DNA of 64,000 bases. Source: Verrucomicrobia bacterium UBA6982. GTDB taxonomy: Bacteria; Verrucomicrobiota; Kiritimatiellia; RFP12; UBA3636. Shown here piece after piece: positions 2,770 to 63,773 of this stretch. How positions within the stretch are numbered: the stretch's first letter is position 1; each line of letters starts with the position of its first letter. Position numbers and translations under genes: made by a program. The stretch is taken from positions 5,475 to 69,474 of the forward strand of contig DJYI01000049.1 in the NCBI GenBank assembly GCA_002448475.1. The letters run 5' to 3'. The notes below the pieces were generated by a model, which was not told the origin of the DNA, searched no databases, and saw only the letters and a list, made by a program, of their open reading frames with translations.

Positions 2770-5472
2770 ATGTCATGCATCCCCGTCGGCCTCGTCGCCG
2801 AATTCCTTGAAAATCCGATATGCCTTGAAACCCCGACGCCGCGCCTGTCGTGGCGTCTTGACGATTCGCGCACCGGCGCGAGGCAGACTGCATATCGCAT
2901 CGTCGCCGCGTCGTCCGCCGCCAGACTCGAAGCGGAGCATTGCGACATCTGGGACTCGGGCAAGGTTCGGAGCGAAAACACGCTGGACATCGTGTGGGGT
3001 GCAGGGCCGCTGCGTTCGCGCGCTTCCGTCTTCTGGCGCGTAATGGTCTGGGACAAGGACGGCAAGCCTTCGCCGTGGAGCGCCATCGCGCATTTCGAGA
3101 TCGGGCCGTTTGCGCCGGGCGACATCGCGGCATCGTGGATTGGCTCCGCGCGGCCCCGCACGAAGTCCGACATGCCCGTGCCGATGTTCCGCAAGGCGTT
3201 TTGCCTGCCCGCCGCGCCGGTCCGTGCGCGGCTCTACGCCACGGCCTTCGGAGATCTCGCAATGTCCGTCAACGGCCGCCCCTCCGGCGATGACCTCTTC
3301 GTGCCCGGATGGACCGACTACGGCAAGCGCGTCCCACTCGTCGCATGGGACGTGACGCCGCATTTGCGCGCGGGCGAAAACGTCCTTGGCGCGATGCTCG
3401 CAGACGGCTGGTTCGCCGGGACGATGGTCTGGCCGGACCACCGCAACCATTACGGGAGGCACACCGCCTTCATGGCGCAGCTGGAGGTCGAGTTCGCCGA
3501 CGGAACGCGGCAGGTCGTCGTCTCGGATGCCTCCTGGCACTGCACGGAGCGCGGCCCCATCCGCGCTTCGGACCACTACAACGGCGAAACCTACGACGCG
3601 AGGCTTGAAATGCCCGGATGGGACGCGCCTGGCTTCGCCGCGCGCGGCTGGCGTCGCGCCGCCGTCATCGAGGACCGCCCCAACGCGGCGCTCTGCGGCC
3701 GCATCGCCGGCCCGGTGCGCCGGCAGGAGGTCCTTGCGGCCCGGCGCCGCACCGAGCCGCAGCCGGGGCGCTATGTCTTTGACTTCGGACAGAATATGGT
3801 CGGCGTGCCGCGCATAGCCCTGAGCGGCAGCCCCGGAGCGAAAATCACGATCCGCTACGCCGAGATGCTCAATCCCGACGGCACGCTCTACACCGCCAAC
3901 TACCGCACGGCCAAATCGACGGACGTTTACATCTGCGGCTTGGCAGCCACAAAGAACACAAAGAGGCACAAAGGTTTTGCGGACTCCGTGTCCTCTGTGC
4001 CTGGAAATGAAACCTACGAGCCGCGCTTCACCTACCACGGCTTTCGTTATATCGAGCTTTCCGGCGATTTTTCCGCGCCGCCGGAATGCGGCGACGTCGT
4101 AGGCGTCGTTATCCATTCCGACATGGCGCAGACCGGCGCATTCGAATGTTCCGACCCTCTCGCCAACCGGCTCTTCTCCAACATCAACTGGGGGCAGCGC
4201 GGCAACTACTTCGAAGTGCCGACCGACTGCCCGCAGCGCGACGAACGTCTCGGCTGGCTCGGCGACGCGCAGGTCTTTATCCGCACCGCCGCCTACAATC
4301 GCGACATCGCGGCCTTCATGGAAAAGTGGATGCGCGACATCTCCGACGCGCAGCACGCCGACGGCGCCTTCACGGACATCGCGCCGGATGTCTTTCCCTT
4401 CGAGAACCACGGGCACTGCGGCTACGCCGACGCCGGCGTGGTCGTCCCGTGGACGATGTACCAGTTCTACGGCGATCTCGAAATCCTCCGGCGGCACTTC
4501 GACGCCATGGCGCGCTGGGTCGGCTGGTGGGAGCGCATCGCCGGGCCGGGGCTCGTCATCCCCTACAGGGGCGAAGGCAGCTGGCACTACGGCGACTGGC
4601 TCGCGGTCGATTGCCCCGTGGACGAAGACGGCCATCCGATCCGGGAAGGCGCCCCGACCCCGACCGACCTCCTCGCGACCGCGTATTTCGCGCGTTCCGC
4701 CGGCATCGTGGCCGACGCGGCGCGCGCCCTCGGGCGCAAGGCCGACGCGCGGCGGTTCGACGCGCTCCGCCGCCGCGTGGCAGCCGCCTACCGCCGGCAG
4801 TTCGTGACGCCCGGCGGACGTGTCGCGGGCGACACGCAGACCGGGTATCTCGTCACGCTCGGATTCGGGCTCGTGGACGACAGACAAACCGTGGCCCGCA
4901 TGGTGGACAGGCTTGCGTTCCTCGTCGAGTCGCGCGACTGCTCGCTCACGACGGGATTCCTCGGGACGCCGCTCGTCTGTCCCGTGCTGACGCGATTCGG
5001 CCGCGCCGATCTGGCCTACAGGATCTTCCAGCGCCGCAAGTATCCGTCATGGTATTTCCAGATACTCGACGGCGACGCCACGACGATGTGGGAGCGCTGG
5101 AACAGCTATTCCTCCAAGTCGGGCTTCGGCGACGCGAACATGAATTCCTTCAACCACTACGCCTACGGCGCGATAGGGGAATGGATGTTCGAAACGCTCG
5201 CCGGCATCTCTCCCATGGAGCCGGGCTTCCGTAAAATACGGTTCTCGCCCATCCCGGGAGGGGATGTGACCTGGGCAAGGGCATCGATCGCAACCAGACA
5301 CGGAACGGCGTCGATCCATTGGCGCAAACAGAAGGGCGGCCGCATCGCCGTCGATCTCGTCGTTCCGCCGTGCACAACCGCCGTGCTGGAACTGCCCGGC
5401 GCCGCGCCGCGCGAACTACAGGCGGGGCACCACCACATGACCGTCCAGGGCCTTCCGGGAAACTTCGCATAG
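2770..5472 (+). CDS. alpha-L-rhamnosidase, GH78, cytoplasmic (no signal peptide).
   Basis: N-terminal PRLSWRL motif and the GH78 catalytic-region signature EVPTDCPQRDERLGWLGDAQVF. Length 900 aa. Confidence 0.85.
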   Translation: MSCIPVGLVAEFLENPICLETPTPRLSWRLDDSRTGARQTAYRIVAASSAARLEAEHCDIWDSGKVRSENTLDIVWGAGPLRSRASVFWRVMVWDKDGKPSPWSAIAHFEIGPFAPGDIAASWIGSARPRTKSDMPVPMFRKAFCLPAAPVRARLYATAFGDLAMSVNGRPSGDDLFVPGWTDYGKRVPLVAWDVTPHLRAGENVLGAMLADGWFAGTMVWPDHRNHYGRHTAFMAQLEVEFADGTRQVVVSDASWHCTERGPIRASDHYNGETYDARLEMPGWDAPGFAARGWRRAAVIEDRPNAALCGRIAGPVRRQEVLAARRRTEPQPGRYVFDFGQNMVGVPRIALSGSPGAKITIRYAEMLNPDGTLYTANYRTAKSTDVYICGLAATKNTKRHKGFADSVSSVPGNETYEPRFTYHGFRYIELSGDFSAPPECGDVVGVVIHSDMAQTGAFECSDPLANRLFSNINWGQRGNYFEVPTDCPQRDERLGWLGDAQVFIRTAAYNRDIAAFMEKWMRDISDAQHADGAFTDIAPDVFPFENHGHCGYADAGVVVPWTMYQFYGDLEILRRHFDAMARWVGWWERIAGPGLVIPYRGEGSWHYGDWLAVDCPVDEDGHPIREGAPTPTDLLATAYFARSAGIVADAARALGRKADARRFDALRRRVAAAYRRQFVTPGGRVAGDTQTGYLVTLGFGLVDDRQTVARMVDRLAFLVESRDCSLTTGFLGTPLVCPVLTRFGRADLAYRIFQRRKYPSWYFQILDGDATTMWERWNSYSSKSGFGDANMNSFNHYAYGAIGEWMFETLAGISPMEPGFRKIRFSPIPGGDVTWARASIATRHGTASIHWRKQKGGRIAVDLVVPPCTTAVLELPGAAPRELQAGHHHMTVQGLPGNFA
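3946..4003. repeat. Short palindromic element of the CACAAAG-repeat family, inserted in frame in the rhamnosidase gene.
   Basis: GCCACAAAGAACACAAAGAGGCACAAAGG....CCGTGTCCTCTGTGCCTGG. Its 5' arm matches the intergenic element at 63825..63945. It encodes ...AATKNTKRHKGFADSVSSVPG.... Confidence 0.5.
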
Positions 5473-5547: not shown

Positions 5548-6606
5548 TTGAGGGCGCTGCACGCCCGTCCCCGAATGATCTCGATCGTCGAAGAACTCCG
5601 CACGAACCGCGAAAGCGGCGCAAAACGGCTTGAAGCCGAATACAAGGCCGGTCTCATGACTCTGGCCCGGCGCTTCCACGCCGACGAAGGCGACGCCGAG
5701 GAACTCGTCAACCGCACGCTGGCCGAAGTCATCGCGGGCATCGACGCCTATCTGGAGCAATCCGCCTTTTTCGGCTGGATGTGCAAGATCCTCGAAAACC
5801 AATACTCCAAGGACGTGCGTCGCAAGTCGAACAGGACAATTGTCGAGGCACCCGAAGCATTGGACGCGGCGGACGACGCGGATGCGGCCAACCGGATTTT
5901 CCGCGAAGTCGATGCGGCGATTCTCCGCGACGCCATCGCCACGCTTCCCGACGACATGAAGGACGCGCTCATGCTCCGCTATTTCATGGACATGCCCGTC
6001 GGGCGCGTGGCGAAAATCCTGTCGGTCCCGGAGGGCACCGTGAAGTGGCGCCTGCATTGCGCCCGGCTCACGCTCTCCGCCAAGCTCGGCGCCGCCGCGA
6101 AGAAGCCGGGCGGCAGGTCCGTCCTCCTCGCGCTGGCGCTCTGCGGCTTCGCGGCACTTGGCGCGGCGGTGTGGAACCTCGGGTGGGGCGAGCCGTCCCG
6201 GCGAGCCGACGCCCCCGCCTGGGCCTACGGCGAGGGGACGGGCGGGACCGGCGGGACGGGCGGGACCGGCGGGACGGGCGGGACCGGCCTTCAACCTTTC
6301 AACTTTTCATCCGAACAATCAACTGAACAACCCCAACAGGAAACCTCCTCTATGACCATACGCACACGTTCCGCGGCGCTGGGCGCCGCCTCCGCGCTGG
6401 CGCTTGCCAGTGCGCCTTCCGCCGCCTCCGGCGACGAATACCAGTTCATCGTCTCCGGCGATCCGGCCGCCGCCGCGACGGCGGGCGTCGTCGAGGCGGA
6501 ATCGACGGCCGGCCCGCTGGACGTCCGCCACCATGCCGTCGCCGAATCGCGCGCGATGGCCCTTTCGTCGATCAAAAACGGCAGTTTCGTCATTGTCGTC
6601 AGGTAG
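5548..6606 (+). CDS. ECF-type sigma-70 factor (regions 2 and 4) whose ORF continues, with no stop codon, through a TM segment, a GTGG tandem repeat and an intergenic-type octamer array into a small secreted-protein coding segment.
   Basis: Sigma region 4 helix-turn-helix LMLRYFMDMPVGRVAKILSVPEGTVKWRLHCAR. It is followed by the TM-like segment SVLLALALCGFAALGAAVW, then EGTGGTGGTGGTGGTGGTG, then LQPFNF (from the CTTTCAAC array), then MTIRTRS.... Confidence 0.6.
   Translation: MRALHARPRMISIVEELRTNRESGAKRLEAEYKAGLMTLARRFHADEGDAEELVNRTLAEVIAGIDAYLEQSAFFGWMCKILENQYSKDVRRKSNRTIVEAPEALDAADDADAANRIFREVDAAILRDAIATLPDDMKDALMLRYFMDMPVGRVAKILSVPEGTVKWRLHCARLTLSAKLGAAAKKPGGRSVLLALALCGFAALGAAVWNLGWGEPSRRADAPAWAYGEGTGGTGGTGGTGGTGGTGLQPFNFSSEQSTEQPQQETSSMTIRTRSAALGAASALALASAPSAASGDEYQFIVSGDPAAAATAGVVEAESTAGPLDVRHHAVAESRAMALSSIKNGSFVIVVR
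6232..6290. repeat. Tandem repeat of an 18-bp unit (GGGACGGGCGGGACCGGC), about 3 copies, encoding (GTGG)n.
   Basis: Direct reading of the sequence 6232-6290. Confidence 0.8.
6291..6320. repeat. CTTTCAAC octamer array (CCTTCAACCTTTCAACTTTTCA).
   Basis: The same motif array is found at 9781-9803, 9893-9920 and, reverse-complemented, at 63740-63773. Confidence 0.7.
6352..6606 (+). CDS. Possible separate small secreted protein (85 aa) with a signal peptide and a C-terminal ...NGSFVIVVR.
   Basis: ATG at 6352 is followed by the signal-peptide-like MTIRTRSAALGAASALALASAPSAASG. It is in the same frame as the sigma ORF with no intervening stop. The C-terminal motif is shared with four other secreted proteins. 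Confidence 0.4.
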   Translation: MTIRTRSAALGAASALALASAPSAASGDEYQFIVSGDPAAAATAGVVEAESTAGPLDVRHHAVAESRAMALSSIKNGSFVIVVR

Positions 6607-8057: not shown

Positions 8058-9761
8058 ATGAAAACAATATTCCTTCTCGCCGCCGGCTTCTCCCTGGCGG
8101 CGGGCGCCCCGGCGTGCGCCGCCGGGCAGGATACCCGCCTCGCCGAACACGGCGGCCGCGTCTGGCGGCTCTCGCCGGGCTGCCGCATCGACGGCGACCA
8201 GCTCACGGTCTCGATCCCGGAGGGCCTTTACCCGCAGACCCAGTGGGCGCGGACGGACATCGACCTCTCGCCGTGGGAGGGGCGCGGCTTCGAGGCGCAC
8301 GTCCGGGTCCGCGGCGAGGACATCGCCACGCCGACGCAGCCGTGGCTCGGCTTCAAGTTCATGCTCAGCTGGCGCGACCGGTTCACGGGCGCCATGCGCT
8401 ATCCCGGCGCCGGCGCGCCGCTCGGCGCGTTTCCGTGGCAGGACGTCTCGTTTCGCCAAATGGGCTGGTTCCGCGGTGCGGATGGCCCCGGCACACTCCA
8501 TCTCGGGCTTCAGGGAACATCCGGCACCGTCGTCTTCGACCTCTCGTCGCTCCGCATCGGCGATCTCGCGCCGATCTGGCCCGTCACGAACCAGAACCAC
8601 CGGTGCGAGTATTTCGCACCGAAGGGAATGTTCACAAATCTCAAGTGTTCACAAATCGACAATGCCACAAATAACAATTGCGGCGCGCCCGGCGGTCGCG
8701 CCCTACCGGTAGGGGCCGACCGCCGGGCGGCCCGCAATTTTGATTCGCCATTTATGAACAATGATGAACAATTGTCATTTGTGAACAATGCCGCCAAGCG
8801 GCTCGCTCCCCTAAGGGGCGTGATGTCGCCAAGCGGCCGCGACATGAACGAGGACGACTTCGCGACGCTCGCCTCGTGGGGCGCGACGCTTCTGCGCTAC
8901 CAGATGGTGCGCGACTGGCACGGCGTGGGAACCAACGCCGACCTCGAAGACTACGACCGCTGGCTGGACGGCAAGCTCGACCATGTCGAGGGCGTCGTGC
9001 TGCCGCTCGCCCGGAAATACGGGCTGAAGGTCGCCATCGACCTGCACGTCACGCCCGGGGGACGCGACGCCTCGCACGAAATGAACATGTTCCACGACGC
9101 GACATTCGCCGGCCATTTCGTCGAATGCTGGCGACGCATCGCGCGGCGCTTCAAGGGCAACGGCGACGCGATCTACGGCTACGACCTCTGCAACGAGCCG
9201 CAGCAGCAGCGCGCGGCGCCGCCGGGAATGGACGGCTGGAACCTCCAGCGCCGCGCCGCCGAGGCGATCCGGGAAATCGACCCGGAAACGCCGATCATCG
9301 TGGAATGCAACGCCAACGACGCGCCGGACGGCTACCGCAACCTCTCGCCGCTCACCCTGACGAACGTCATCTACGAAGTCCACATGTATGGGCCCGGCGA
9401 CTTCACGCACCAGGGGATCCAGGGGATGTCGATGGCGCGCTGCCGCTGGCCGGACGCGTCGCGCGGATGGGATGCTGGCTTCCTGCGCTCCGCGCTCGCG
9501 CCAGTGCGCCAGTTCCAGCTGCGCCACGGCGCGAAAATCTACGTTGGCGAGTTCAGCGCCGTCGCGTGGGCGGAGGGCGCGGACATCTGGCTCCGCGACA
9601 TCATTTCCGTTTTCGGGGAATACGGCTGGGACTGGACCTACCACGCCTTTCGCGAATGGCGCGGATGGAGCGTCGAGCACGAAGGCCCGGACATCGACCA
9701 CATGGCGCCGTCCGCCGACAACCCGCGCAAGCGCGCCCTTCTGGAGGGCCTGCGGCGCTGA
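8058..9761 (+). CDS. Secreted CBM-like plus GH5 glycoside hydrolase, paralog of the C-terminal part of 233..2659.
   Basis: Signal peptide MKTIFLLAAGFSLAAGAPA. GH5 motifs GYDLCNEP and VGEFSAV. Alignable to ORF1 across the beta-sandwich and the TIM barrel. Confidence 0.8.
   Translation: MKTIFLLAAGFSLAAGAPACAAGQDTRLAEHGGRVWRLSPGCRIDGDQLTVSIPEGLYPQTQWARTDIDLSPWEGRGFEAHVRVRGEDIATPTQPWLGFKFMLSWRDRFTGAMRYPGAGAPLGAFPWQDVSFRQMGWFRGADGPGTLHLGLQGTSGTVVFDLSSLRIGDLAPIWPVTNQNHRCEYFAPKGMFTNLKCSQIDNATNNNCGAPGGRALPVGADRRAARNFDSPFMNNDEQLSFVNNAAKRLAPLRGVMSPSGRDMNEDDFATLASWGATLLRYQMVRDWHGVGTNADLEDYDRWLDGKLDHVEGVVLPLARKYGLKVAIDLHVTPGGRDASHEMNMFHDATFAGHFVECWRRIARRFKGNGDAIYGYDLCNEPQQQRAAPPGMDGWNLQRRAAEAIREIDPETPIIVECNANDAPDGYRNLSPLTLTNVIYEVHMYGPGDFTHQGIQGMSMARCRWPDASRGWDAGFLRSALAPVRQFQLRHGAKIYVGEFSAVAWAEGADIWLRDIISVFGEYGWDWTYHAFREWRGWSVEHEGPDIDHMAPSADNPRKRALLEGLRR
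8626..8790. mobile_element. MITE-like element (TGTTCACAAAT-TIR family, about 165 bp) inserted in frame in the GH5 paralog linker.
   Basis: 5' end ATGTTCACAAATCTCAAGTGTTCACAAATCGACAATG. 3' end ATGAACAATGATGAACAATTGTCATTTGTGAACAAT (inverted). GC-rich palindromic core GCGCGCCCGGCGGTCGCGCCCTACCGGTAGGGGCCGACCGCCGGGCGGCCCGC. The ends are similar to the TIRs of the composite element at 10876..11380. It encodes 61 extra aa at the same linker position where ORF1 carries a different element. Confidence 0.7.
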
Positions 9762-9780: not shown

Positions 9781-9920
9781 TGCGCCGACAACCTTTCAAC
9801 CGTTCAACCGGATTTATTGGGACAGACCCCGTAGATTCAAAAATGTTGCCAGTGTGAGACTGTTGCCAATTGCCAATCCCAATTCCAATTGGCCTTTCAA
9901 CTTTTCAACCTTTCAACTGT
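9781..9920. repeat. Intergenic region, relatively AT-rich, bounded by CTTTCAAC octamer arrays (CAACCTTTCAACCGTTCAACC at the 5' end; CCTTTCAACTTTTCAACCTTTCAACTG at the 3' end). Internally it has CCAATTG repeats.
   Basis: Direct reading. The 27-mer at 9893-9919 is identical to the reverse complement of 63740-63773. Confidence 0.7.
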
Positions 9921-9923
9921 TTA

Positions 9924-10733
9924 ATGTTTTCCATCGACCACGACCTGCATTGCCACACGCACCTCTCCGGTTGCTCCAACGACCCGGAGCAGACGCCGGA
10001 AAATCTCCTCGCGTTCGCCACGGCGCATGGCTACGCCGCGATGGCCTTCACCGACCACTTCTGGGACGCGCCGGCCGTTCCGGGGTCGGAAGGCACCTAC
10101 CTCGACGGCTGCGGTCTGGAACACGTGTCGGCCGATCTGCCCCTGCCCGACGGCGGTCCGGTGCGTCTTGTCTTCGGCTGCGAGACGGAACTTTCGTCTG
10201 CGAGGGTTCTCGGCCTTGCTCCGGAACATTGCGACCGCTTCGGATTCATCGTCATTCCCCCCAACCATTTCCACATGACGGGATTCGTCCGCCCGGCGGA
10301 GTGCGCGACGGCGGAACGGCGCGCCGAACTTCTGGTCTCTCGCCTGGAAACCGTGCTTGGCATGTCTCTGCCCTGGGAGAAAGTCGGGATCGCGCACCTC
10401 AACTGCGGACTCATGTTCGCCGACGGCGACCTCGGGGCGGTGCTTCGCGCCGTTCCGGAGGACCGCTTCCGCGACGCCATGCGCGGCTTTGCCGAACGTG
10501 GCGCCGGGATCGAACTCAACATGGCGAGCTTTGACGCGAACCGCCGGCGCGGCGTCTCGCCGGAAGACGCCCTGCGCCTCTTCCGCTTCGCCCGGGACGA
10601 AGGCTGCCGCTTCTATCTGGCAAGCGACGCCCACCACCCGGCCGGACTCGAACTCGTCCCCGGCATCGCGTCAGAGATCGTGGACGCGCTTGATCTTGAC
10701 GCCCGCCACGTTTACAGGCTGCCCGAGCCCTGA
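9924..10733 (+). CDS. PHP-domain (polymerase/histidinol-phosphatase family) metal-dependent phosphoesterase.
   Basis: N-terminal MFSIDHDLHCHTHLSGCS...AFTDHF is the PHP-domain His motif. The ORF track starts at 9870 within the repeat; the Met at 9924 is the likely start. Confidence 0.7.
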   Translation: MFSIDHDLHCHTHLSGCSNDPEQTPENLLAFATAHGYAAMAFTDHFWDAPAVPGSEGTYLDGCGLEHVSADLPLPDGGPVRLVFGCETELSSARVLGLAPEHCDRFGFIVIPPNHFHMTGFVRPAECATAERRAELLVSRLETVLGMSLPWEKVGIAHLNCGLMFADGDLGAVLRAVPEDRFRDAMRGFAERGAGIELNMASFDANRRRGVSPEDALRLFRFARDEGCRFYLASDAHHPAGLELVPGIASEIVDALDLDARHVYRLPEP

Positions 10734-10768: not shown

Positions 10769-10875
10769 CTACAGCCCGACGACGTGAATCGTCTTGCCGC
10801 CAAAAGCCACGTCGCGGGTGAAAAGCCGCTCGTCCCAGGACTTGCCGGAGTCGTCGTCGAAGACCGGCATCCAGC
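10769..10875 (-). pseudogene. 3' fragment (last ~35 codons) of a second copy of the AAA-ATPase/PD-(D/E)XK gene (paralog of 18658..20232).
   Basis: About 105 bp are roughly 90% identical to 18658-18765, including the stop codon. Homology ends abruptly at the left TIR of the inserted element. Confidence 0.7.
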
Positions 10876-11380
10876 TCGAAGAATTGTTCACAATTGACAA
10901 TTGAGACAAATGTTCACAAATGGGAAATGACAAATTCATCTTCTGTCCTGTTCGTTAAGATTTCGCCGGGCCGTTGTCACGCTTGCGTAGAAAATCTTTA
11001 TCAATTCTTCGGTTTCCTGCAATACGTGCGACACGAGATTTTGATCGGCATAATTCCTCATCGCGATGATACGAAGCCACATTCTGGTTTCAATGAGTTC
11101 CTTGAGCGCGATATTTGTCTTGTGGGCGAAATCTTTGCGCGATTCCGGAACGCACGCCTCGGCATAATTGGCTGCAACCGACGTGGCTGCTCGAAACAAT
11201 TGGTCCTGGAGGTGCGCTTTCCCGATTTTGGAAACCATGGATTCGCAAACATCGATGGCCGCTGCTGCAAAAGCCGCTACCCGGAATTCAATTTCGGAAG
11301 ACGTTAGCATGGCAAATTGCGTTTTGTTATTTGTGAACAATTGTTTCAATTGAAAATTGTGAACACTCTAGCAGAGCGCG
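10876..11380. mobile_element. AT-rich (about 45-48% GC) ~0.5-kb element with ~50-bp imperfect terminal inverted repeats of the TGTTCACAA family. It carries a four-helix-bundle gene and replaces the middle of an AAA-ATPase gene copy.
   Basis: Left TIR ATTGTTCACAATTGACAATTGAGACAAATGTTCACAAAT. Reverse complement of the right TIR AGTGTTCACAATTTTCAATTGAAACAATTGTTCACAAAT. Low GC compared with the flanks. Flanked by the N- and C-terminal fragments of the ATPase paralog. Confidence 0.7.
10936..11310 (-). CDS. Four-helix-bundle protein of the 23S rRNA intervening-sequence / DGR Avd-like family (PF05635/TIGR02436-like).
   Basis: Motifs LQDQLFRAATSVAANYAEACVPESRKDFAHKTNIALKELIETRMWL match the family consensus (L..Q..RAA.S...NIAEG ... 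S.K.F..........E....L). Length about 124 aa from ATG 11310; the ORF track's TTG at 11349 lies inside the TIR. Confidence 0.75.
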   Translation of the reverse strand: MLTSSEIEFRVAAFAAAAIDVCESMVSKIGKAHLQDQLFRAATSVAANYAEACVPESRKDFAHKTNIALKELIETRMWLRIIAMRNYADQNLVSHVLQETEELIKIFYASVTTARRNLNEQDRR

Positions 11381-11577
11381 ACTGCGTCGCCCTTGGCGTT
11401 GATTTCGCGGACGAGCGCCTTGACGGTTGTCGTCTTGCCCGTCTGTCGCGGCGCGTGGATGACGAAATACGTCTCCTGCTCGACAAGGCGCCGAATTTCC
11501 GGCATCCGGTCGAGAGCGGGCAGCATGTAATGCTTGGCGGGAAAGCAGGGGCCCGCGACGTTGAAGAACTTTTCCAT
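11378..11577 (-). pseudogene. 5' fragment (first ~66 codons) of the second AAA-ATPase/PD-(D/E)XK gene copy, ending at the element junction.
   Basis: Encodes MEKFFNVAGPCFPAKHYMLPALDRMPEIRRLVEQETYFVIHAPRQTGKTTTVKALVREINAKGDAVALC*, near-identical to the N-terminus of 18658..20232. The upstream region also shares the TGGTAGCAT -10 element. Confidence 0.7.
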
Positions 11578-18657: not shown

Positions 18658-20232
18658 CTACAGCCCGACGACGTGGATGGTCTTGCCGCCGAACGCCACG
18701 TCGCGGTTGAAGAGCTTTTCGTCCCAGGACTTGCCGGAGTCGTCGTCGAAGACCGGCATCCAGCCTTCGGCGAGACCGAGGGAACCGAGGTAGTCGGCGA
18801 GCTGCGCGTAGGACTTCTCCCCGGCGAAGTTCTTCGAGGTCTTGACCTCGATCGCGTAGCGCTTGCCCCGATACTCCACGCAGAGGTCGAGGCGGCGGGA
18901 CCCCAGCGCCATTTCGCGCAGGATGTGCCCGTCGCCGTTCGTGACGCGCTGCAGGAACGCCATGAGGACGAGGTGCGGCAGCGCCTCCTGGTAGTCGTGA
19001 GGGTTGCGGAGGACGCCGCTGTTTTCGCGCCAGAACGCCTGGAACGCCGCCATGAGTCCGGGCATGTCGAGACCGTCGGGCAACGCCCAAGGCGTCTGCG
19101 GAACGGACTTCACCATGTCGTCCTGCGTATCGCGGGTGAGATAGCGCCCGATGATTTCCGCATACATCCGGTTGGACGGGACGAGTTCGCGCAAGTCGTT
19201 TTCCCGCATGAGGCCAAGGTCGATGACGAACCGGTAGTCCTCGCTGTCACGGGATACCGGGCTGGCGCCGCCGAAGATGACGGGTTCGACCACACGCCGG
19301 ACGCGCGGCTCGCGGAGGCGCTCCATGAGGCTGTCCACGTGCGTGTCGCGGCGTCGAATGATCGTCTCCTTGGCCGTTTCCACGTCGGCCGCGGTAATCG
19401 GGGCCGCGTAGTCGAAGGAGTGGATTTCCTCGACGCACTCGCGGGCGATGGCATTGACGAGCCAAGGTTGGCCGCGCGTGAACTCCCAGACCCGATCGAG
19501 CGCTTCCTTTTCGAAGACCTGCCCCGTCGCCACGGTGTGCTGCGCGTAGAGGGCGGCGATCTCAGCCTCCGTGAAGTTGCGAAGCATCAGGTCCTTGGTG
19601 ATGATGTTGAAGGGGCTGATCTGGCCGCGCGACTCCCCGTCGGGGCGAATCTGGGCCTTGTAGTCGCGCACGTCCAGCATCCCGATCAGGGCGATGGAGG
19701 CTGGGAACGGAACAGAATCGCGGTTTACGTATCCGTCGCGAAGCTGGCGCAGGAAGGAGATCAGCACATTTCCCGCGAGGCAGTCCGCCTCGTCAAAGAA
19801 CACCACGAGCGGCTTCCTTACGCGGCGGCAAAGCGAGGTCAAAACCTCCCTGACGGCGAGGGACTCGGCGGCATACGTCGGGCCGGATTCCTCGACGCGC
19901 GGCAGTTCGCCGGATTCGGGAAAGTATTCCGGGAGCGTGTTCCGGGCCGCGAAAAGGAGCAGCCCGCGGATGGCGTCGGCGGAGCGGGCCGAATCCGTGG
20001 CGTTCTGGAGCGTTTCCAGCGTGCAGTAGAGCGCAACCCTTTCCCCCTTGGCGTTGATTTCGCGGACGAGCGCCTTGACGGTTGTCGTCTTGCCCGTCTG
20101 CCGCGGTGCGTGGATGACGAAATACGTCTCCTGCTCGACAAGGCGCCGAATTTCCGGCATCCGGTCGAGAGCGGGCAGCATGTAATGCTTGGCGGGGAAG
20201 CAGGGGCCCGCAACGTTGAAGTATTTTTCCAT
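18658..20232 (-). CDS. AAA-ATPase (PF09820-like) with a C-terminal PD-(D/E)XK nuclease-like domain (PDDEXK_9-like).
   Basis: Walker A HAPRQTGKTTTV. C-terminal RLDLCVEYRGKRYAIEVKTS (D...E.K). 524 aa. Confidence 0.8.
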   Translation of the reverse strand: MEKYFNVAGPCFPAKHYMLPALDRMPEIRRLVEQETYFVIHAPRQTGKTTTVKALVREINAKGERVALYCTLETLQNATDSARSADAIRGLLLFAARNTLPEYFPESGELPRVEESGPTYAAESLAVREVLTSLCRRVRKPLVVFFDEADCLAGNVLISFLRQLRDGYVNRDSVPFPASIALIGMLDVRDYKAQIRPDGESRGQISPFNIITKDLMLRNFTEAEIAALYAQHTVATGQVFEKEALDRVWEFTRGQPWLVNAIARECVEEIHSFDYAAPITAADVETAKETIIRRRDTHVDSLMERLREPRVRRVVEPVIFGGASPVSRDSEDYRFVIDLGLMRENDLRELVPSNRMYAEIIGRYLTRDTQDDMVKSVPQTPWALPDGLDMPGLMAAFQAFWRENSGVLRNPHDYQEALPHLVLMAFLQRVTNGDGHILREMALGSRRLDLCVEYRGKRYAIEVKTSKNFAGEKSYAQLADYLGSLGLAEGWMPVFDDDSGKSWDEKLFNRDVAFGGKTIHVVGL

Positions 20233-27020: not shown

Positions 27021-28220
27021 CTATCCGAGATGGTTCTTGCGCCACTGGCGCATCGACATGCCCGTGCGAGCCCGAAAGGCGATGCGCAGCTCGACCTGCG
27101 AGCCGAAGCCGCAGAAGTCGGCGATGGCACCGATGGGCGGCTGAGGTCTGGCAAGCAGGTCCTTCACCGCCTGGAGGCGCACATGCATGATCTCGTCCAT
27201 CACCGAGTGGCCCATTGCCTCGCGGAACCGGCGTTCGAAATGCTTGCGGGAGCCGGGAATCCGCGCGGCGAGACCTGCCGCCGTGATCCCTCCGCAGGCC
27301 TCCTTCCGGATGATCTCGACGGCCTTGAGGACATGCGGGTCGCGGCGACCGCGGCCAAGCGTGGACTCGCGCCGCAGGATGCACAGCGGACCGAAGCGCG
27401 CCGAGAGGTCGTCCGTCGCGGCATCCTTGCAACCGCCAGAAGCCCCCGCGTCCACGAGTCGGGCCAGGAGGCGGGCTGCCAAATAGCCCGCAAGCTCGAA
27501 GTCAAGCTGTGCGGACGACACGCCCGCGATGGCCGTTTCGCCGTCGGAGTCGCCCCATCCGTCGACGCCGACAAGCGTCAGATCGCGCGGAAGGGAGCGC
27601 CCGGCGGCGCGGGCGGCGAAGGCGACGTCCTGCGCCGAGAAGTCGTTCGCGGCGAAGACGGCGCAGCCTCTTGGCAGGGTCGCGACCCATTCCGCGAGAC
27701 GGCGGCGGCGGCGCACCAGGTCGTCGGTGACGTGGCCCGGCCTCACGCGGATCGCGGTAAAAAGGTGGCACGCGGCGCCAGCGCCGTCGCAGAGTTCCCG
27801 AAACGCATCGATGCGCTCCGCGCTCCACAGCTGCATTCCGTGGCTCGGGACCGCGGCATAGCATGGCGGAAGCCCCGCCGCGAGTTCGCGGAAAGCGGTC
27901 TTCGCGACGGCGGCGTTGTCGCACGCGACACATGCCGCGCCGCCCAGGGAACGCGGCTCGGGCGGATCCAGCCACACGGCGGGGACGCAGCCGAAAAGGG
28001 CCGGTCTGGGAAATCGCCGCACAGAGGAGCTCTCCACGATGCAGCCGACGGGACGGCGGTCCTTCAGAAGCCTGCGAACGTTTTCCGGCCGCGACTCCGA
28101 GGATTTCAGCGCCGCGACTTCCCAGCCGCGCATCCTCGCAAAGCGGAGGATGCCGGCCAGCTTGCGCCGCCGCGTGTTGTTCTCCCCGCTGCCGTTCAGA
28201 AACAGGACCGTTCCAGCCAT
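27021..28220 (-). CDS. XylR-like regulator (PBP-fold sensor plus AraC helix-turn-helix), paralog of 17372..18577.
   Basis: C-terminal ...ITAAGLAARIPGSRKHFERRFREAMGHSVMDEIMHVRLQAVKDLL...FCGFGSQVELRIAFRARTGMS. Confidence 0.75.
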   Translation of the reverse strand: MAGTVLFLNGSGENNTRRRKLAGILRFARMRGWEVAALKSSESRPENVRRLLKDRRPVGCIVESSSVRRFPRPALFGCVPAVWLDPPEPRSLGGAACVACDNAAVAKTAFRELAAGLPPCYAAVPSHGMQLWSAERIDAFRELCDGAGAACHLFTAIRVRPGHVTDDLVRRRRRLAEWVATLPRGCAVFAANDFSAQDVAFAARAAGRSLPRDLTLVGVDGWGDSDGETAIAGVSSAQLDFELAGYLAARLLARLVDAGASGGCKDAATDDLSARFGPLCILRRESTLGRGRRDPHVLKAVEIIRKEACGGITAAGLAARIPGSRKHFERRFREAMGHSVMDEIMHVRLQAVKDLLARPQPPIGAIADFCGFGSQVELRIAFRARTGMSMRQWRKNHLG

Positions 28221-28255
28221 TGTCTTTCCCCCGCGATGGCGAGCGTCGGTGCCGT

Positions 28256-30412
28256 CTATCGAATGCGCTTCACGGGGAAGCGCTCACCGGAAAGGGCGCG
28301 GCGGACGTATGCGCCCCAGAATGGTGTCGGCGTGTAGTCCCAATCGAGCAGAAGACGCGGCGTGGAACCGGTGTGCATGCACCAGCCGGTCCAGTGAAGC
28401 CTGTGCTTTTGGATGAAGCCCAGCAGATCCGGGCAGAAGGTGTTCGGGTCCTCCTGGTCGGAGTGCTTGATGAAGTCCATCTTCTTCTCGTCGCCGCCGC
28501 ATTCGCCAACGAATACCGGATGCTTCTCCGCTATTGGCAGGACACGCGCCCAGCCCGGATGCCAGTTGTAGGTGTGCCACGAGTAGATGATCCCGTCGCC
28601 GTCGGGGTCGTCCATCGCCCAGCCCTGGTCCCAGCCTGTGAGGTCGTTGGTCCAGAACACGCCTGAGACTATGGCCGGATTGCGCGCGCCGGTCGAGCGC
28701 GCCGCCGCGAGAAGCCCCTTGAGGCCGACGCTTTCAAAGCCCGCGTTCGCCTTTTTCTCGGCATCGGTCAGGAAGGCCGATTCGTCATGCTGCCCCGCTT
28801 CGCCGACCCAGCCGCCGTTCACCAGCACGTCCCAGCCGATGCCGTGCGGCTCGTTGAAGAGTTCGAAAAGGACGGCAGGGTGGTTCCTGAAATGCGCGGC
28901 GGCGTCCTTCCAGAACTCCGCGTGCTCTGGCTTAGGCGCCCTGAACCTGTGCAGGTCGAGCACGACGTATGCGCCCCTGTTCGCGGCAAGCGTCACGATC
29001 CTGTCAATCAGCGCCCGGTATTCTTTTCCGCCGTCATTCTGGTAGCCGGTCTTACCAAACCAGAAGTCGTCCTTTACCGGAACGCGAATGCAGTTTGCGC
29101 CCCAATCCTCGATAGCGACGAGTGTCGATTTCTCGGCCTGCCTGTCGTGCGCGACGCTCTCGGTCCCCGAGAGGCTCACCCCCTGGAGCCAGACTTCATT
29201 TCCGGCGTCGTCAAGCAGCTTCGGGCCTTCGACATGCAGCGGACGCGGGAACTTGGCTGGATTTGGCTCCTCCGGCGGCACGTAGCGCGCGGCCTCCTGA
29301 CGTGCGCGCATCTCGGCGGCCTGGCGCGGGCCTTCGGCGTCCGTCGGGGCCAGAACGAGGTTTTCAATTTCGTAATGCCCGGCCTTCACTTGGAAGAGGC
29401 TTGGCATCACCGCAATCGCCGTCGCGCCTTCCGGCACGAGGAATTCGAGCTTTCGTTCAAACCATTCGGGCCTGTCCTTCTGCGAGTAGGCGGGCTGCGG
29501 ATGCCGGACGCCGCTCATTTTCTTGCCGTCCGGGCCGAGAAATTCTGCAATGACCCGCGCGTCAAACCACGGTTTCTCGCCCTTGACGAGTCCGGTGATC
29601 TTCTCGCGCCACGAGAGGCGCAGCGCTTCCGTGCCTTCGGGGATGTAGGCCACAAGGTATTTGCAGAGCATTTTGCCTGGCTCGGTCTGTTCGAGGACGA
29701 TCGTGCCATCTCCGGGGAGGAGGCTGCCGGTCTTTTCAAGACGGGCCGCGCACTTGGCGCGGCGCTTCGCGAGTTCGGCCTTCGCCTTGGCGGCCGCTTC
29801 TGCCGCGCGTTTCTCCGCAGCCGCACGCAAATCGGCCGGGTCGGTTGGTTCAAGTGAAATGTCGTCGATGTCGAGCGTCCCGGCCGTTACATTGAGGAGC
29901 GACGGCATGAACTTCAGAATCCGGGCCTCGGGCGGCACAAGGAAATCCTTCGCTCCCTGCTCCCAGCCGTCGGTGTCCTTGCCGCGGTTCGGCGCTCCAG
30001 GCGCCCCGCCCACCTTTCTGCGCGCGCCGTCCATGAACTCCATCATGATCCGCGCGTCGAACCAGGGCTTGTCGCCCTTCCTGAGGCCCGTGACGCGCCA
30101 GCGCCACGCGAGGCGCAGAGCCTCGACGCTTTCGGGAATCGCGATTTCGCGGTAGATCATCGCCGTGCCGCCGTCCGAGTGGATGCGCGCGAAGCGGTTG
30201 CCGTCCTCGGTCTCGTATGTTATGCCCTTGCCCGGATTTGGCGCCGGCCAGCCGTCGGGCGCCGTCGCAGCGCCATCGAATCCGGGGTTCTCGATCAAGT
30301 TGCCACTGGAAGCGGAGAGGGCCAGGAGGACGAACAATCCGATGGTGAAGCCTCGGACACGGAACCGGCTGCGCGACCGGACCGGGGAAAGGGCGTTGAA
30401 AATCCGTTTCAT
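28256..30412 (-). CDS. Secreted GH5 glycoside hydrolase with two N-terminal CBM-like beta-sandwich repeats and a coiled-coil linker.
   Basis: Signal/TM MKRIFNALSPVRSRSRFRVRGFTIGLFVLLALSA. Duplicated ~150-aa domain (..ALRL.WR..(V/I)TGL.KG(D/E)KPWFDAR..). GH5 motifs LFELFNEPHG and FVGECGG. The start was trimmed to 30412. Confidence 0.8.
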   Translation of the reverse strand: MKRIFNALSPVRSRSRFRVRGFTIGLFVLLALSASSGNLIENPGFDGAATAPDGWPAPNPGKGITYETEDGNRFARIHSDGGTAMIYREIAIPESVEALRLAWRWRVTGLRKGDKPWFDARIMMEFMDGARRKVGGAPGAPNRGKDTDGWEQGAKDFLVPPEARILKFMPSLLNVTAGTLDIDDISLEPTDPADLRAAAEKRAAEAAAKAKAELAKRRAKCAARLEKTGSLLPGDGTIVLEQTEPGKMLCKYLVAYIPEGTEALRLSWREKITGLVKGEKPWFDARVIAEFLGPDGKKMSGVRHPQPAYSQKDRPEWFERKLEFLVPEGATAIAVMPSLFQVKAGHYEIENLVLAPTDAEGPRQAAEMRARQEAARYVPPEEPNPAKFPRPLHVEGPKLLDDAGNEVWLQGVSLSGTESVAHDRQAEKSTLVAIEDWGANCIRVPVKDDFWFGKTGYQNDGGKEYRALIDRIVTLAANRGAYVVLDLHRFRAPKPEHAEFWKDAAAHFRNHPAVLFELFNEPHGIGWDVLVNGGWVGEAGQHDESAFLTDAEKKANAGFESVGLKGLLAAARSTGARNPAIVSGVFWTNDLTGWDQGWAMDDPDGDGIIYSWHTYNWHPGWARVLPIAEKHPVFVGECGGDEKKMDFIKHSDQEDPNTFCPDLLGFIQKHRLHWTGWCMHTGSTPRLLLDWDYTPTPFWGAYVRRALSGERFPVKRIR

Positions 30413-30465
30413 GGTTGGGGGTTCCGAAGATTGCGCGTCGCGAAGTCTGTTTTGCGCGCCGGGCT

Positions 30466-31449: not shown

Positions 31450-31507
31450 GGGAGGGGAGAGGTAAGAGGTGAGAGGTGAGAGGGAAGAGGTGAGAGGGAA
31501 GCCGCCT

Positions 31508-35216: not shown

Positions 35217-37508
35217 ATGGCAACCGACGAATCGAACTATCCAGCGCGCATGGCGCGCCTCACCGCGCGCAAGATCGAACAGACGAAGGCGAAACTCGCC
35301 GCGCTCGGCACGCGCGACGAGGACGACTACGGGCTCGTCCTGCCCCCGGCGTCGTTCAAGGTCGAGCTTCCGGCACGCGACGCGACGGGCCAATGGTCCG
35401 GCCCGCGCGCCTGGGCCGCGAACTTCCGCTGGCTCATGGAGAACCACCCGTGCTACATCGACCCAGACGACGCCATCGCCGGGCGCTGGATGTTCATGCT
35501 TTCCCGAATGCGCCTCGGATACCAGCTTTCGCGCTCCAACTTCGCCTTCGACTACTCGCATCTGGAGCCGGAGCAGAAAAAATACGACATCACGCCGGGC
35601 ATCGGCAAGGACGCCCATTTCGCCCCGGACTACCAGATCGGCCTCGACCTCGGCTGGGGCGGGCTGCTCGCGAAGGTGCGAGCTTCGCGGCGAACGATCG
35701 CCGCCAAGCCAGTGTTCACAAATGACAATCGTTCGCAAGTCTCAAATGGCACAAATGTCAATATTGAACCCAAAATCGCCGGCAGTTCGTCCGTCCTGAC
35801 GCAAGGGCGAGCGCAAAGCGCCGCGCTTGCGGATTCCGCCTACGCGCTTGAACTCCTCGACTCCGAAGAGCAGGCGATCCTCGGCGTGCAGACCTGGATC
35901 CGGCATCTAGCCGCGGCGGCGGACGATCGCGCGATGTCGGAGGACGACCCCGCGCGCCGCGCCAACCTTGAAGAGACGGCACGCACGTGCTACGCGATCG
36001 TGGACGCCCCGCCCCGCACCTTCCGCGAGGCGGTGCAGTGGATCGCGGTCTTCAACATGGCCTCGCGCACCTACAACCGCGACGGCGCCGGCGGGCAGCT
36101 CGACGAGCTGCTGCGCCCCTACTACGAGCGCGACAAGGCCGCGGGACTTCTCACCGACGAAGACGCGGAGTTTCTCGTCTTCTGCCTCCTGCTCAACGAC
36201 CCGCACTACTACCAGATCGGCGGACCGGACGCGGATGGCCGCGACCAAACGTCGCCTCTCTCATACCTCATCCTCGAAGCGGCCGGCAAGCTCAAGGCGT
36301 CGTGCAACCTCACGATCCGCGTCTGGGACGGCATGGACCGCCGTCTTTTCCGGCGCGGCGTGGAGATACTTCTCGCCAACCGGCAGGGCTGTCCGCGCTT
36401 TTCCGGCGACAAGGCGCTCGTCGAGGGCTTCATGCGCAGCGGCTACTCCGCCGAGCTCGCGCGCCGCCGCATCGCCGTCGGCTGCAACTGGATGAGCCTT
36501 CCCGGGCTCGAATACACGCTCAACGACGTCGTGAAGATCAACGTCGCCAAGGTCTTCGAGGTCGCGTTCGCCGAGACGGAGCGTCCGGAGGATCTCGAGA
36601 AAAACTACGTCCGGCACTTCCGCGCCGCAGTGGACGTCACCGCGCGCGGCATCGACTTCCATCTCGCGCACCAGTATCTTAACGAGCCTGAGCTGATGCT
36701 CAACCTCCTCTCGCACGGCCCGATCGAAAAGGGCATGGACGTTTCGCACGGCGGAGCGACCTACTACAACATGGCGATCGACGGCGCGGGGCTGGCCGTG
36801 GTGGCGGACAGCTTCGGCGCGATCGAGGAGCGGGTCGTGAAGGAGAAGGCGCTTTCGTTCGCCGCGCTCAAGGCCGCCGTCGCCGCCAACTTCGAAGGCG
36901 AGGAGGGGGCACGCATCCGGGCGCTCGTCCAGGGCGCGGGCCGATACGGAGCGGGCGGCACCGCCGCAGACCGCTGGGCGGTGCGCCTTACGGAAATCCT
37001 CCGCGCCGAAGTCGCCGGCCGCACGACCCCGAACGGCTTCAAGCTCATCCCGGGCTGGTTCTCGTGGGCGGACACCATCCGCTTCGGCAAAGCCGTTGGC
37101 GCCACGCCGAACGGCCGCCTCGCCGGGGAGCCGATTTCGCACGGCGCCAACCCGCTGCCGGGCTTCCGCAAGGACGGCGCGCTCACGGCCATGGCCGCCG
37201 CCATCGCCTCCGTGCAACCGGGCTACGGCAACACCGCGCCATGGCAGCTGGAAGTGGACATCGGGCTGGCAAACGACCCGGACGCGGCCGAGAAGGTCAT
37301 GGCGCTCATCGAGGGGCACTTCGCGCTCGGAGGGACGCTCGTCAACATCAACGTCGTCGACGCGAAGAAAATCCTCGAAGCGCACAGGGATCCGTCCAAG
37401 CACCCGGACCTCGTCGTGCGCGTGACGGGCTTCACGGCCTACTTCAACTCCCTGTCGCCCGCGTTCCGGCAGCTCGTCGTGGACAGGCTCATCCGGGAAG
37501 CCGTTTGA
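35217..37508 (+). CDS. Glycyl radical enzyme of the PFL2/glycerol-dehydratase (DhaB1) family; the substrate is unknown.
   Basis: C-terminal glycyl radical motif VVRVTGFTAYFNSL. Catalytic-loop Cys block IAVGCNWMSLPG. Alignable to DhaB1 blocks (IRVWDG...; FGKAVGATPNGRLAGEPISHGANP). 763 aa. Confidence 0.85.
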   Translation: MATDESNYPARMARLTARKIEQTKAKLAALGTRDEDDYGLVLPPASFKVELPARDATGQWSGPRAWAANFRWLMENHPCYIDPDDAIAGRWMFMLSRMRLGYQLSRSNFAFDYSHLEPEQKKYDITPGIGKDAHFAPDYQIGLDLGWGGLLAKVRASRRTIAAKPVFTNDNRSQVSNGTNVNIEPKIAGSSSVLTQGRAQSAALADSAYALELLDSEEQAILGVQTWIRHLAAAADDRAMSEDDPARRANLEETARTCYAIVDAPPRTFREAVQWIAVFNMASRTYNRDGAGGQLDELLRPYYERDKAAGLLTDEDAEFLVFCLLLNDPHYYQIGGPDADGRDQTSPLSYLILEAAGKLKASCNLTIRVWDGMDRRLFRRGVEILLANRQGCPRFSGDKALVEGFMRSGYSAELARRRIAVGCNWMSLPGLEYTLNDVVKINVAKVFEVAFAETERPEDLEKNYVRHFRAAVDVTARGIDFHLAHQYLNEPELMLNLLSHGPIEKGMDVSHGGATYYNMAIDGAGLAVVADSFGAIEERVVKEKALSFAALKAAVAANFEGEEGARIRALVQGAGRYGAGGTAADRWAVRLTEILRAEVAGRTTPNGFKLIPGWFSWADTIRFGKAVGATPNGRLAGEPISHGANPLPGFRKDGALTAMAAAIASVQPGYGNTAPWQLEVDIGLANDPDAAEKVMALIEGHFALGGTLVNINVVDAKKILEAHRDPSKHPDLVVRVTGFTAYFNSLSPAFRQLVVDRLIREAV
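35712..35770. repeat. Solo TGTTCACAAAT-family element remnant inserted in frame in the GRE gene.
   Basis: GTGTTCACAAATGACAATCGTTCGCAAGTCTCAAATGGCACAAATGTCAATATTGAAC. It matches the TIR motif of the elements at 8626 and 10876 and encodes ...PVFTNDNRSQVSNGTNVNIEP.... Confidence 0.55.
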
Positions 37509-37532
37509 CCGTTTGACCGTTTGACCGTTTTG
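37501..37532. repeat. Tandem octamer CCGTTTGA, about 3.5 copies, in the GRE-activase spacer.
   Basis: ccgtttgaccgtttgaccgtttgaccgttttgaatg. The array overlaps the GRE stop codon. Confidence 0.7.
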
Positions 37533-63739: not shown

Positions 63740-63773
63740 CCAGTTGAAAGGTTGAAAAGTTGAAAGGTTGATA
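63740..63773. repeat. CTTTCAAC octamer array on the minus strand, identical to 9893-9919.
   Basis: Reverse complement: CCTTTCAACTTTTCAACCTTTCAACTG. Confidence 0.7.

Follow-up and report, generated by a model that had tools for sequence, protein, structure and literature searches.

The window analysed here, by which we mean the whole 64,000-nucleotide stretch of contig DJYI01000049.1 of Verrucomicrobia bacterium UBA6982, contains two copies of an ATPase gene, one of which is broken by a small AT-rich element. The element, at 10880..11369 on the minus strand, is 490 bp long with 45% GC, and is made up of an upstream arm, a gene for a four-helix-bundle (4HB) protein and a downstream arm inverted with respect to the first. 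An earlier note on this DNA had described a unit bounded by terminal inverted repeats (TIRs) whose sole gene encodes a 4HB protein of the type found in the intervening sequences (IVSs) of 23S rRNA and as Avd in diversity-generating retroelements (DGRs), and that description is borne out. The intact paralog at 18658..20232 (minus strand) encodes a 524-aa ATPase of the AAA type, probably with a PD-(D/E)XK domain at its C terminus, and served as the reference for the deletion that accompanies the element. Two remnants of the interrupted copy are left on the same strand: the first 68 codons at 11370..11577 (65/68 residues identical by BLASTP, 96%, and recovered by BLASTN), whose frame ends at a TAG formed at the edge of the element, and the last 37 codons plus stop at 10769..10879 (paralog residues 488-524; 32/37 identical, 86%). 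About 419 codons, or 1.26 kb, are gone relative to the 524-aa paralog. The interruption had been recognised before, with remnants put at ~66 and ~35 codons. The AAA-ATPase/PD-(D/E)XK label then given to the gene stands less firmly, as the AAA matches are weak and the PD-(D/E)XK part is based solely on sub-threshold matches to SfsA and Cas4.

The limits of the element can be placed closely. In a BLASTN comparison with 18658..20232, homology on the N-terminal side begins upstream of the paralog's start codon, continues to window position 11370 and ends there, picks up again at 10875 and runs past the stop codon. The non-homologous stretch is 494 bp with a GC content of 0.449, against 0.644 for the whole window, in line with the AT-rich insert of about 0.5 kb described earlier. 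Comparison of five copies assigns 10880..11369 to the element proper, leaves 10876-10879 ambiguous, gives ends that read AGAAT(T)GTTCACAA, and shows a core of exactly 481 bp in all five. The inverted arms pair between 10885-10936 and 11314-11365, 52 nt each and 79% complementary, so that the imperfect TIRs of ~40-50 bp seen earlier are if anything slightly longer. Counted to the ends of the element, the gene-proximal (upstream) arm found by the inverted-repeat search occupies 11314..11369 (minus strand) and is an array of ACAATTG/CACAAAT-type sub-repeats ending in TGTTCACAA; the downstream arm, placed by the same search and the five-copy comparison, occupies 10880..10936 (minus strand), is an inverted copy of the upstream array and overlaps the stop codon of the 4HB gene. 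The sub-repeats recur in the arms at 7-16-nt spacing. The window contains the core motif TGTTCACAA, a 9-mer, 8 times where 0.23 occurrences would be expected, a count reached in 0/100 shuffles, and relatives occur in metagenomes, so the TIR family does have additional copies.

In the predicted RNA fold the TIRs pair as a ~50-bp terminal stem around the open reading frame (ORF), and a promoter and terminator scan around the element found one internal promoter-like site and zero terminators. An Rfam scan of the whole window gave zero matches, hence zero rRNA; the insert sits in an ATPase gene, not at one of the IVS sites of 23S rRNA genes (helices 9, 25 and 45). TIRs and multiple dispersed copies, the features by which insertion sequences and MITEs (miniature inverted-repeat transposable elements) are recognised, are both present. 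We infer that the element is a mobile unit, and its movement probably depends on host functions.

The one credible ORF of the insert, at 10936..11310 (minus strand) and oriented like the broken ATPase gene, encodes 124 aa plus stop. Its product matches the hidden Markov models (HMMs) PF05635 (E 3.6e-19, 69.4 bits, cut-off 33.8) and TIGR02436 (88.1 bits, cut-off 24), and PF05635 is matched by 22/22 aligned homologs. The AlphaFold2 monomer model has four helices at a pLDDT of 95.5, and the top Foldseek matches are 2RLD (TM 0.78-0.88) and 2GSC, which is Xcc0516 (TM 0.72-0.84). Because HMM matches, structural model and structural matches agree, the label of an IVS/Avd-type four-helix bundle holds. 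A homopentamer is described for 2GSC and Avd (PMC4990558; bioRxiv 10.1101/2023.10.23.563531), and for Avd, binding of the pentamer to a defined RNA element has been described (bioRxiv 10.1101/2023.10.23.563531). Gene callers prolong such ORFs upstream through the arm, as in the window ORF 10936..11349 and the protein hits P0012 and P0073, and the spurious N-terminal peptides MKQLFTNNK and MIVHKWQLSQLFTNHK are translated repeat array.

Is the locus then the remains of a DGR, an orphan Avd whose reverse transcriptase and template/variable repeat (TR/VR) pair have been lost? The fold does match Avd, whose structures 4DWL and 8UBE rank after 2RLD and 2GSC at TM 0.7-0.8, and PF05635 is the Pfam family closest to Avd (PMC10053308). 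Sequence matches go elsewhere, however: a profile built from the 22 homologs finds 2RLD in the PDB at E 1e-17, a member of the free-standing S23p family, and similarity to Avd is below detection in the same search. Precomputed Pfam calls for all genes within ~10 kb on each side (ENA contig ERZ12302817 NODE_400) comprise glycoside hydrolases, a sulfatase-maturing enzyme, an AraC regulator and the ATPase, with no match to a reverse transcriptase. Direct repeats of at least 50 nt in 1-30000 all derive from paralogous genes, and no TR/VR pair was found among them; in the annotated plasmid loci described below, a reverse transcriptase adjoins the 4HB gene in 0/12. The earlier view that this is not a DGR is thus upheld, and decay from one seems to us extremely improbable. 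On sequence grounds the protein falls in the free-standing S23p branch, not with Avd.

Related genomes bear on the fate of the ATPase gene. The syntenic contig L055, which carries the same FGE-sulfatase, cellulase and PHP genes as the window, has at the element's position an intact ATPase C-terminal half (residues 335-524, to the contig end), and its homology with the window breaks off exactly at 10875. The L055 locus may have been repaired by gene conversion instead of never having been hit, because its ATPase is 99.5% identical to the window's other paralog; whether or not conversion occurred, the two contigs display a presence/absence difference between close relatives. Contigs L004 and L056 have the same filled allele as the window, and in L005 and L006 the element lies within a more diverged ATPase homolog. 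The 3' junction of the latter pair is the same as in the window to within a few bases, while their 5' junction falls near residue 358 and the window's at residue 68. The gene-distal junction is therefore fixed, and DNA has been lost always on the gene-proximal side of the element, to two different extents. It had been suggested that recombination between two copies removed the missing part of the gene; because the 3' junction is shared and the 5' junctions differ, one-sided adjacent deletions fit the pattern at least as well.

Do these alleles go back to one event? For the window and L006, synonymous divergence (dS) is 0.41 in the 4HB gene and 0.46-0.59 in the flanks, and a single old insertion common to both would suffice to explain these values. 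For the window and L005 the 4HB dS is 0.19 and that of the flanks ~0.8, a disparity that rules out a single ancestral insertion common to the two and indicates that the element at the L005 site has been exchanged, or re-inserted, independently of its surroundings.

A discrete cassette with lineage-specific arms

The 4HB gene was followed to 51 homolog loci (99-39% identity) from assemblies, nearly all of them metagenome-assembled genomes (MAGs) of rumen Kiritimatiellae, Verrucomicrobia or Lentisphaerae. All sequences from the Planctomycetes-Verrucomicrobia-Chlamydiae (PVC) group are metagenome assemblies, in which repeats break contigs and MAGs may be chimeric. Among the 41 PVC loci that could be tested for flanking inverted repeats, a significant one (z>10 against shuffles) brackets the 4HB gene in 28, forming units of 434-692 bp. 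Each arm consists of 3-7 tandem units of 7-10 nt, whose sequence varies by protein lineage (TGTTCACAAAT, ATTGTGGA, GAACAATT, AATATCCA, ATGTTGCCA, CAACAGCC, CTAATCA and others). One genome may hold several protein lineages, each with its own arms, as L020 and L028 do, and likewise L033 and L046.

The cassette is a discrete unit. Blocks of 478 bp in L023 and L022 (90% identical) and of 490 bp in L021 and L022 (80%) are the sole similarity between otherwise unrelated flanks, and both coincide with the arms; further such blocks are 698 bp long in L016 and L020 and 701 bp in L014 and L015, which are from the same MAG. Presence or absence differs among close relatives in both the cellulase gene described below and the ATPase gene. 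Two tandem copies of the 478-bp 4HB element lie in L022 at 3932-5354. After each L022 copy a paralogous lipoprotein-like gene (MKPFARI(N/K)LS...) begins, and the start of that gene is carried with the element in the 698-bp block of L016 and L020, which looks like transduction of flanking sequence.

The cassette is also maintained. The dN/dS of the 4HB gene is 0.02-0.08 in seven lineage pairs, despite the dead host ATPase. The upstream arm is 59/62 identical to that of L005 and 54/62 to that of L006, which puts the divergence of the arms at 5% and 12%, as against 19% and 41% at synonymous sites, 3-4 times slower. Both the 4HB protein and the arms are accordingly under purifying selection.

The same architecture is found well outside the PVC group. 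Twelve annotated plasmid loci were retrieved by tblastn, chosen by similarity to one query and partly redundant phylogenetically, from Nostoc, Anabaena, Dolichospermum, Planktothrix, Euhalothece, Gloeocapsa, Pseudanabaena, Bernardetia, Chondrinema, Chlorohelix and Treponema. Inverted arrays bracket the 4HB gene in 10/12 of these loci (Cyanobacteria, Bacteroidota, Chloroflexota, Spirochaetota), with inverted-repeat scores of 28-66 for the plasmid 4HB genes as compared to a median of 19 and a maximum of 33 for 31 neighbouring control genes. The array units are GTCGGAG, AATTCAA, AATCCCC with AATCGTA, AATTCGT with AATTTGG, CAGTGAC (~14 copies) and GATGAAG. The pairing of gene and arms thus holds in five phyla and down to proteins of ~35-40% identity, through a complete change in the sequence of the arms.

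Where do these cassettes lie? Usually within operons, facing the same way as the host genes. The upstream gene is co-oriented in 25/28 of the PVC loci, and the best upstream ORF ends <60 bp from the element in about ten, counts that depend on a crude GC3-based choice of ORF. Nine of the 12 plasmid loci are between two co-directional genes, among them an RND efflux adaptor and its permease, DrmD and an MmeI-like enzyme, a helicase and a methylase, and DUF1156 and a HEPN protein; a position next to cas1 is another example. PF05635 genes have been reported scattered in cas loci (PMC3936711), and the family has high 'defence island' scores (PMC10053308). The operon position of the cassettes fits these reports without requiring a role in defence.

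One of the closest known parallels is the 23S IVS with an S23p ORF, found in Leptospira, Coxiella burnetii, Brucella and Xanthomonas. Such IVSs are likewise ~430-750 nt long with a GC content below that of the host, and likewise consist of a TIR stem enclosing a single ORF of the same family. The Coxiella IVS has a 28-bp TIR stem, an S23p ORF and, just upstream of the start codon, 3-4 tandem GACAGAT heptamers whose copy number varies among strains; RNase III cleaves it at the first repeat (PMC4990558). From this match in layout we conclude that the window element and the rRNA IVS are objects of one kind, differing in host and in site. IVSs are co-transcribed with the host gene, as the window element presumably is, and RNase III processing, a feature of the Coxiella IVS, would apply to the window element by analogy only. 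The differences are that the window copy is in a protein-coding gene and its relatives are in operon spacers rather than in rRNA, that the host gene is destroyed here whereas an IVS is tolerated, and that the ORF is under strong purifying selection here, unlike the Coxiella ORF, which is reported to be decaying. A mobile origin is not a new thought for IVSs, since Ralph and McClelland (1993), as cited in PMC4990558, described a mobile element whose ORF aids mobility.

Gene-less hairpins and solitary arms

Many hairpin derivatives without the gene either arise from the element or occur alongside it. When JGI metagenomes were scanned for the double motif, at least 121 loci were obtained; 35 of the 121 listed contain complete hairpins, most of them 67-175 bp, and 1 of the 121 contains a 4HB gene. 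The termini of the 35 hairpins read (A)T|TGTTCACAAAT...ATTTGTGAACA|AT, also written (A)T|TGTTCACAA...TTGTGAACA|AT, in which the AT flanks could be a duplication of 2 bp or could belong to the palindrome. Many are nested inside other repeat arrays. The hairpins have two arm types of their own, with a sub-repeat spacing of 26 or 17 nt; they are related to the window element but did not arise from it by simple deletion. L071 and L079, in which the same motif bounds a longer stretch, were considered and set aside as AT-rich unrelated loci, with no gene between the arms.

A conserved module of ~60 nt, GCCCGCCGCC...GGGAATGTAAATGAGGATAAC[hairpin]GAAGTTATAGGCAAG or, in a variant, GCCCGCCGCC..CGCGCTGCGCACGGGAATGTAAATGAGGATAAC[hairpin]GAAGTTATAGGCAAG, often encloses the hairpins (L061, L070, L076, L097, L122, L150, L154, L156, L163). 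It hosts hairpins of at least two arm families, and more repeat arrays flank it. Viral contigs gave one match.

The window itself contains two members of the family besides the full element, near the positions 8626 and 35712 that had been named for miniature TIR relatives; both are present, the first as a complete hairpin and the second as a single arm, and they are not simple internal deletions. The hairpin, at 8629..8787 (159 bp), has the same family of terminal motifs (TGTTCACAAAT...ATTTGTGAACA), no gene and a GC-rich palindromic centre, and its RNA fold is predicted at -84 kcal/mol (z -7.4). Within the cellulase gene 8058..9761 it falls, in frame, in the interdomain linker. Of the cellulase orthologs the closest, 96% identical elsewhere, lacks ~49 residues at the site and keeps a 16-bp remnant, GGAATGTTCACAAATC; a second ortholog retains only GTGAACAAT, and a third only the GC-rich centre. 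The solitary arm, found by motif search at 35713..~35775 (plus strand), is in frame in the pyruvate formate-lyase gene 35217..37508. Baseline orthologs of this enzyme are 715 aa long with nothing at that position, and many Kiritimatiellae orthologs have differing in-frame inserts of 6-74 residues at the same point.

The site in pyruvate formate-lyase, between KVRASRR and YA.ELLDAEEQAILG, is hypervariable, with inserts of 0-74 residues among orthologs P0242-P0355, which is striking for a conserved glycyl-radical enzyme. Several of the inserts are translated short repeats (NPVNPVNPV, HEIHEIHE, SPQSPQS, NAKNAKSAK). The site is a hot spot for several hairpin families, or the only site at which they are tolerated.

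A solitary arm of another family, AATGTTGCCAGTGTGAGACTGTTGCCAATTGCCAATCCCAATTCCAATTGG, is found at 9842-9918, just upstream of the PHP-family gene 9870..10733, followed by an array of three TTTCAAC(T) units; it is the arm type that surrounds the 4HB genes of L021-L027. Because of this arm, the source genome must have hosted at least two element families.

Gene-less hairpins of this kind are familiar from other systems. Rickettsia palindromic elements are reported in frame inside coding genes, like the cellulase and formate-lyase copies, and the derivatives seen here resemble Correia elements, REP/BIME and the Rickettsia elements in being hairpins, here of 67-175 bp, with defined termini and high copy number, nested in one another. 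The present elements depart from MITEs and REP sequences in that the arms are 7-10-nt tandem arrays rather than unique TIRs, that a target-site duplication was not found, and that the putative parent encodes a helical-bundle protein, not a DDE or HUH (RAYT-type) transposase. One might nevertheless think that the arms are those of non-autonomous MITEs moved in trans by a transposase encoded elsewhere, and that the 4HB gene, retained for some benefit to the host such as defence, is a passenger without a part in mobility. Among the 121 listed JGI loci there are ~35 gene-less hairpins for each gene-carrying copy, the 124-aa helical bundle has no recognisable catalytic motif, and PF05635 genes are enriched near defence genes (PMC10053308; PMC3936711; the plasmid loci above). 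But a passenger gene would be expected to be lost or swapped, and the pairing of gene and arms persists to ~35-40% identity in five phyla despite complete turnover of the arms. Nor was a transposase seen beside any of ~60 loci, and single genomes hold several protein families with their own arms (L020/L028; L033/L046). On balance a MITE with a passenger gene seems an unlikely account.

How the cassette may persist

What, then, keeps a gene and its repeats together? The reading that we prefer, with a probability of roughly 0.55, is that the unit is a free-standing element of the IVS type, with its gene bracketed by inverted short-repeat arrays and its protein needed for propagation or maintenance. 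The element would be transcribed together with its host gene, its arms would fold as a long terminal stem, as in an IVS, and RNase III, to follow the IVS analogy, might cut within the repeats and so release or stabilise the 4HB mRNA. The protein, a pentameric ring in the solved relatives, would recognise the cognate array of ~4-7 units per arm. Such recognition is suggested because the array sequence co-varies with the protein lineage, because a pentameric ring in the relatives can be set beside 4-7 units per arm, and because Avd pentamers bind a defined RNA element. The protein would then be an element-encoded factor that propagates or maintains the full element as well as the matching gene-less hairpins, and the adjacent deletion in the ATPase gene would be a by-product of element activity or of hairpin instability. 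We conjecture that insertion occurs into pre-existing hairpins or arrays, which would lead to nesting, to recurrent sites (the formate-lyase loop, the cellulase linker, ATPase residue ~488) and to the preference of IVSs for rRNA helix tips.

A number of observations weigh against an IVS-type element propagated with the help of its own protein. No target-site duplication was found for the full elements, either in the window or in the compared copies; such duplications had been proposed as a check, and none is convincing. Direct repeats of 15-35 bp at L021 and L022 were considered as candidates and proved to be tandem duplications of the arm plus the start of the host gene. The unit contains no recombinase or transposase, the sole ORF with a family match being the 124-aa helical bundle, and no clean empty/filled pair was found for a full element without an accompanying deletion. 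The remaining 13/41 PVC homolog loci are without significant arms. By its count of charged residues the window protein is not markedly basic, unlike Avd, and the authors of the Coxiella study judged S23p to be probably unexpressed and decaying (PMC4990558). Mismatches between the arms show no preference for RNA pairing: 71 are compatible with G:U pairs on the sense strand, 86 with those on the antisense strand, and 194 are transversions, in a test that register ambiguity weakens. Selection on an RNA stem as the main constraint was dropped for want of a sense-strand wobble excess, and because of this the repeat motif, rather than RNA pairing, seems to be the conserved feature.

The plasmid copies raise a further difficulty, as several of them are within helicase/methylase defence operons, where a host-side regulatory role is possible. 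On the Dolichospermum plasmid pAfl69 (L191) the cognate unit makes up 10/12 exact heptad arrays in 50 kb. All ten AATTACG/CGTAATT arrays are at 27263-33647, in a single operon of helicase, 4HB, hypothetical and methyltransferase (methylase) genes, several of them inside ORFs, and none is found elsewhere in the 50 kb. This clustering could reflect local proliferation, cis regulation or phase variation. Might the cassette then be a regulatory module, in which a ring-shaped regulator that binds RNA or DNA, comparable to the tryptophan RNA-binding attenuation protein (TRAP), targets heptad arrays in the transcript that encodes it and in those nearby, with arrays that arise and spread by replication slippage and recombination and an ATPase disrupted by accident? 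Besides the pAfl69 operon, the strong purifying selection on the protein and the absence of any sign of selection on arm-arm pairing are in keeping with such a module, and heptamer arrays near start codons affect expression in Nostoc, where a binding partner has been postulated (bioRxiv 10.1101/2022.06.06.494920). It does not readily account for a sharply bounded block in unrelated contexts, for the destruction of the ATPase gene in the window, for a unit inside rRNA in other bacteria (PMC4990558), for the foreign GC content (45% versus 64%), or for derivatives in frame in cellulase and pyruvate formate-lyase genes, where regulation is implausible. We regard a purely regulatory module as quite unlikely, and note that selfish and regulatory readings are not mutually exclusive.

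Returning to the reading of a free-standing IVS-type element, the recurrence of one gene-plus-repeat design across phyla and in the 23S IVS suggests that small selfish elements of this class are widespread and for the most part undescribed. A related issue is that of the heptanucleotide repeats known from cyanobacteria (STRR), Xanthomonas (GGGAATC) and Beggiatoaceae (TAACTGA), which have the same unit length and form arrays that are intergenic or in frame; for the Xanthomonas arrays, frequent convergent pairs are reported. On a Planktothrix plasmid a 4HB gene is flanked by arrays of AATCCCC, which we take to be STRR1 and which agrees with the repeat GGGGAYT in PMC4692102. This link to heptanucleotide repeats is shown for arrays directly flanking TIGR02436 genes only, not for genome-wide repeat populations. 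Tentatively, and with somewhat less than even confidence, we suggest that TIGR02436 proteins are the missing partners of the short, mostly heptameric arrays common in many bacterial genomes (STRR, GGGAATC and those of the window among them), each lineage with its own repeat, and that protein and inverted arrays together form a pan-bacterial class of small mobile hairpins lacking a conventional transposase, of which the 23S IVSs, and many MITE-like hairpins in intergenic or in-frame positions, would be special cases or offshoots.

How much of this was known? The rRNA IVSs with their S23p ORF, TIRs and heptamers were known, a mobile origin was proposed in 1993, and TIGR02436 genes are recognised as numerous. 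We found no literature that links the Xanthomonas, Nostoc or Beggiatoaceae repeats to a protein gene, the papers treating the repeats as unexplained, and none on 4HB proteins with flanking repeat arrays, in a search that left most subscription journals outside, so that a prior mention is possible. To judge from the accessible literature, in which no report was found, free-standing members bracketed by inverted short-repeat arrays across phyla are apparently new, as are the MITE-like derivatives and the insertion into protein-coding genes and operons. There is a substantial chance that the finding opens onto a broader class.

Three puzzles would thereby merge into a single problem that can be put to the test: where rRNA IVSs come from and whether they move, open since ~1990; the role of the very large free-standing S23p/Avd-like family, whose structures are solved; and the meaning of the heptanucleotide tandem repeats that have for decades been used as markers for fingerprinting cyanobacteria. 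If the protein does recognise its flanking arrays, this would define a new means of persistence and spread for small elements that have no transposase gene. Such recognition would also account for the 4HB genes inside cas, restriction-modification, DISARM and efflux operons, and the repeat-derived in-frame peptides in essential enzymes such as pyruvate formate-lyase. On the practical side, such inserts break assemblies, yield spurious N-terminal extensions in gene calls, and can mislead the 'defence island' statistics for PF05635.

Arrays of 7-10-nt units occur elsewhere in the window, in intergenic positions at 2672-2737, 3948-3973, 6235-6309, 31452-31501, 37501-37530 and 63743-63852. Their units include CGATTGCAGT (x6.6), GGGACCGGC (x6), AGAGGTA (x6.3), GTTGAAAG (x3.6) and CACAAAGAA (x2.8), and an array of CCGTTTGA (x3.8) is right at the stop codon of the formate-lyase gene. 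Some of the arrays fold as hairpins, and they seem to be other instances, or remnants, of this phenomenon. A 39-nt tandem repeat at 59209-59465, with 6.6 copies at 89% match and probably within a coding region, is unrelated to the element.

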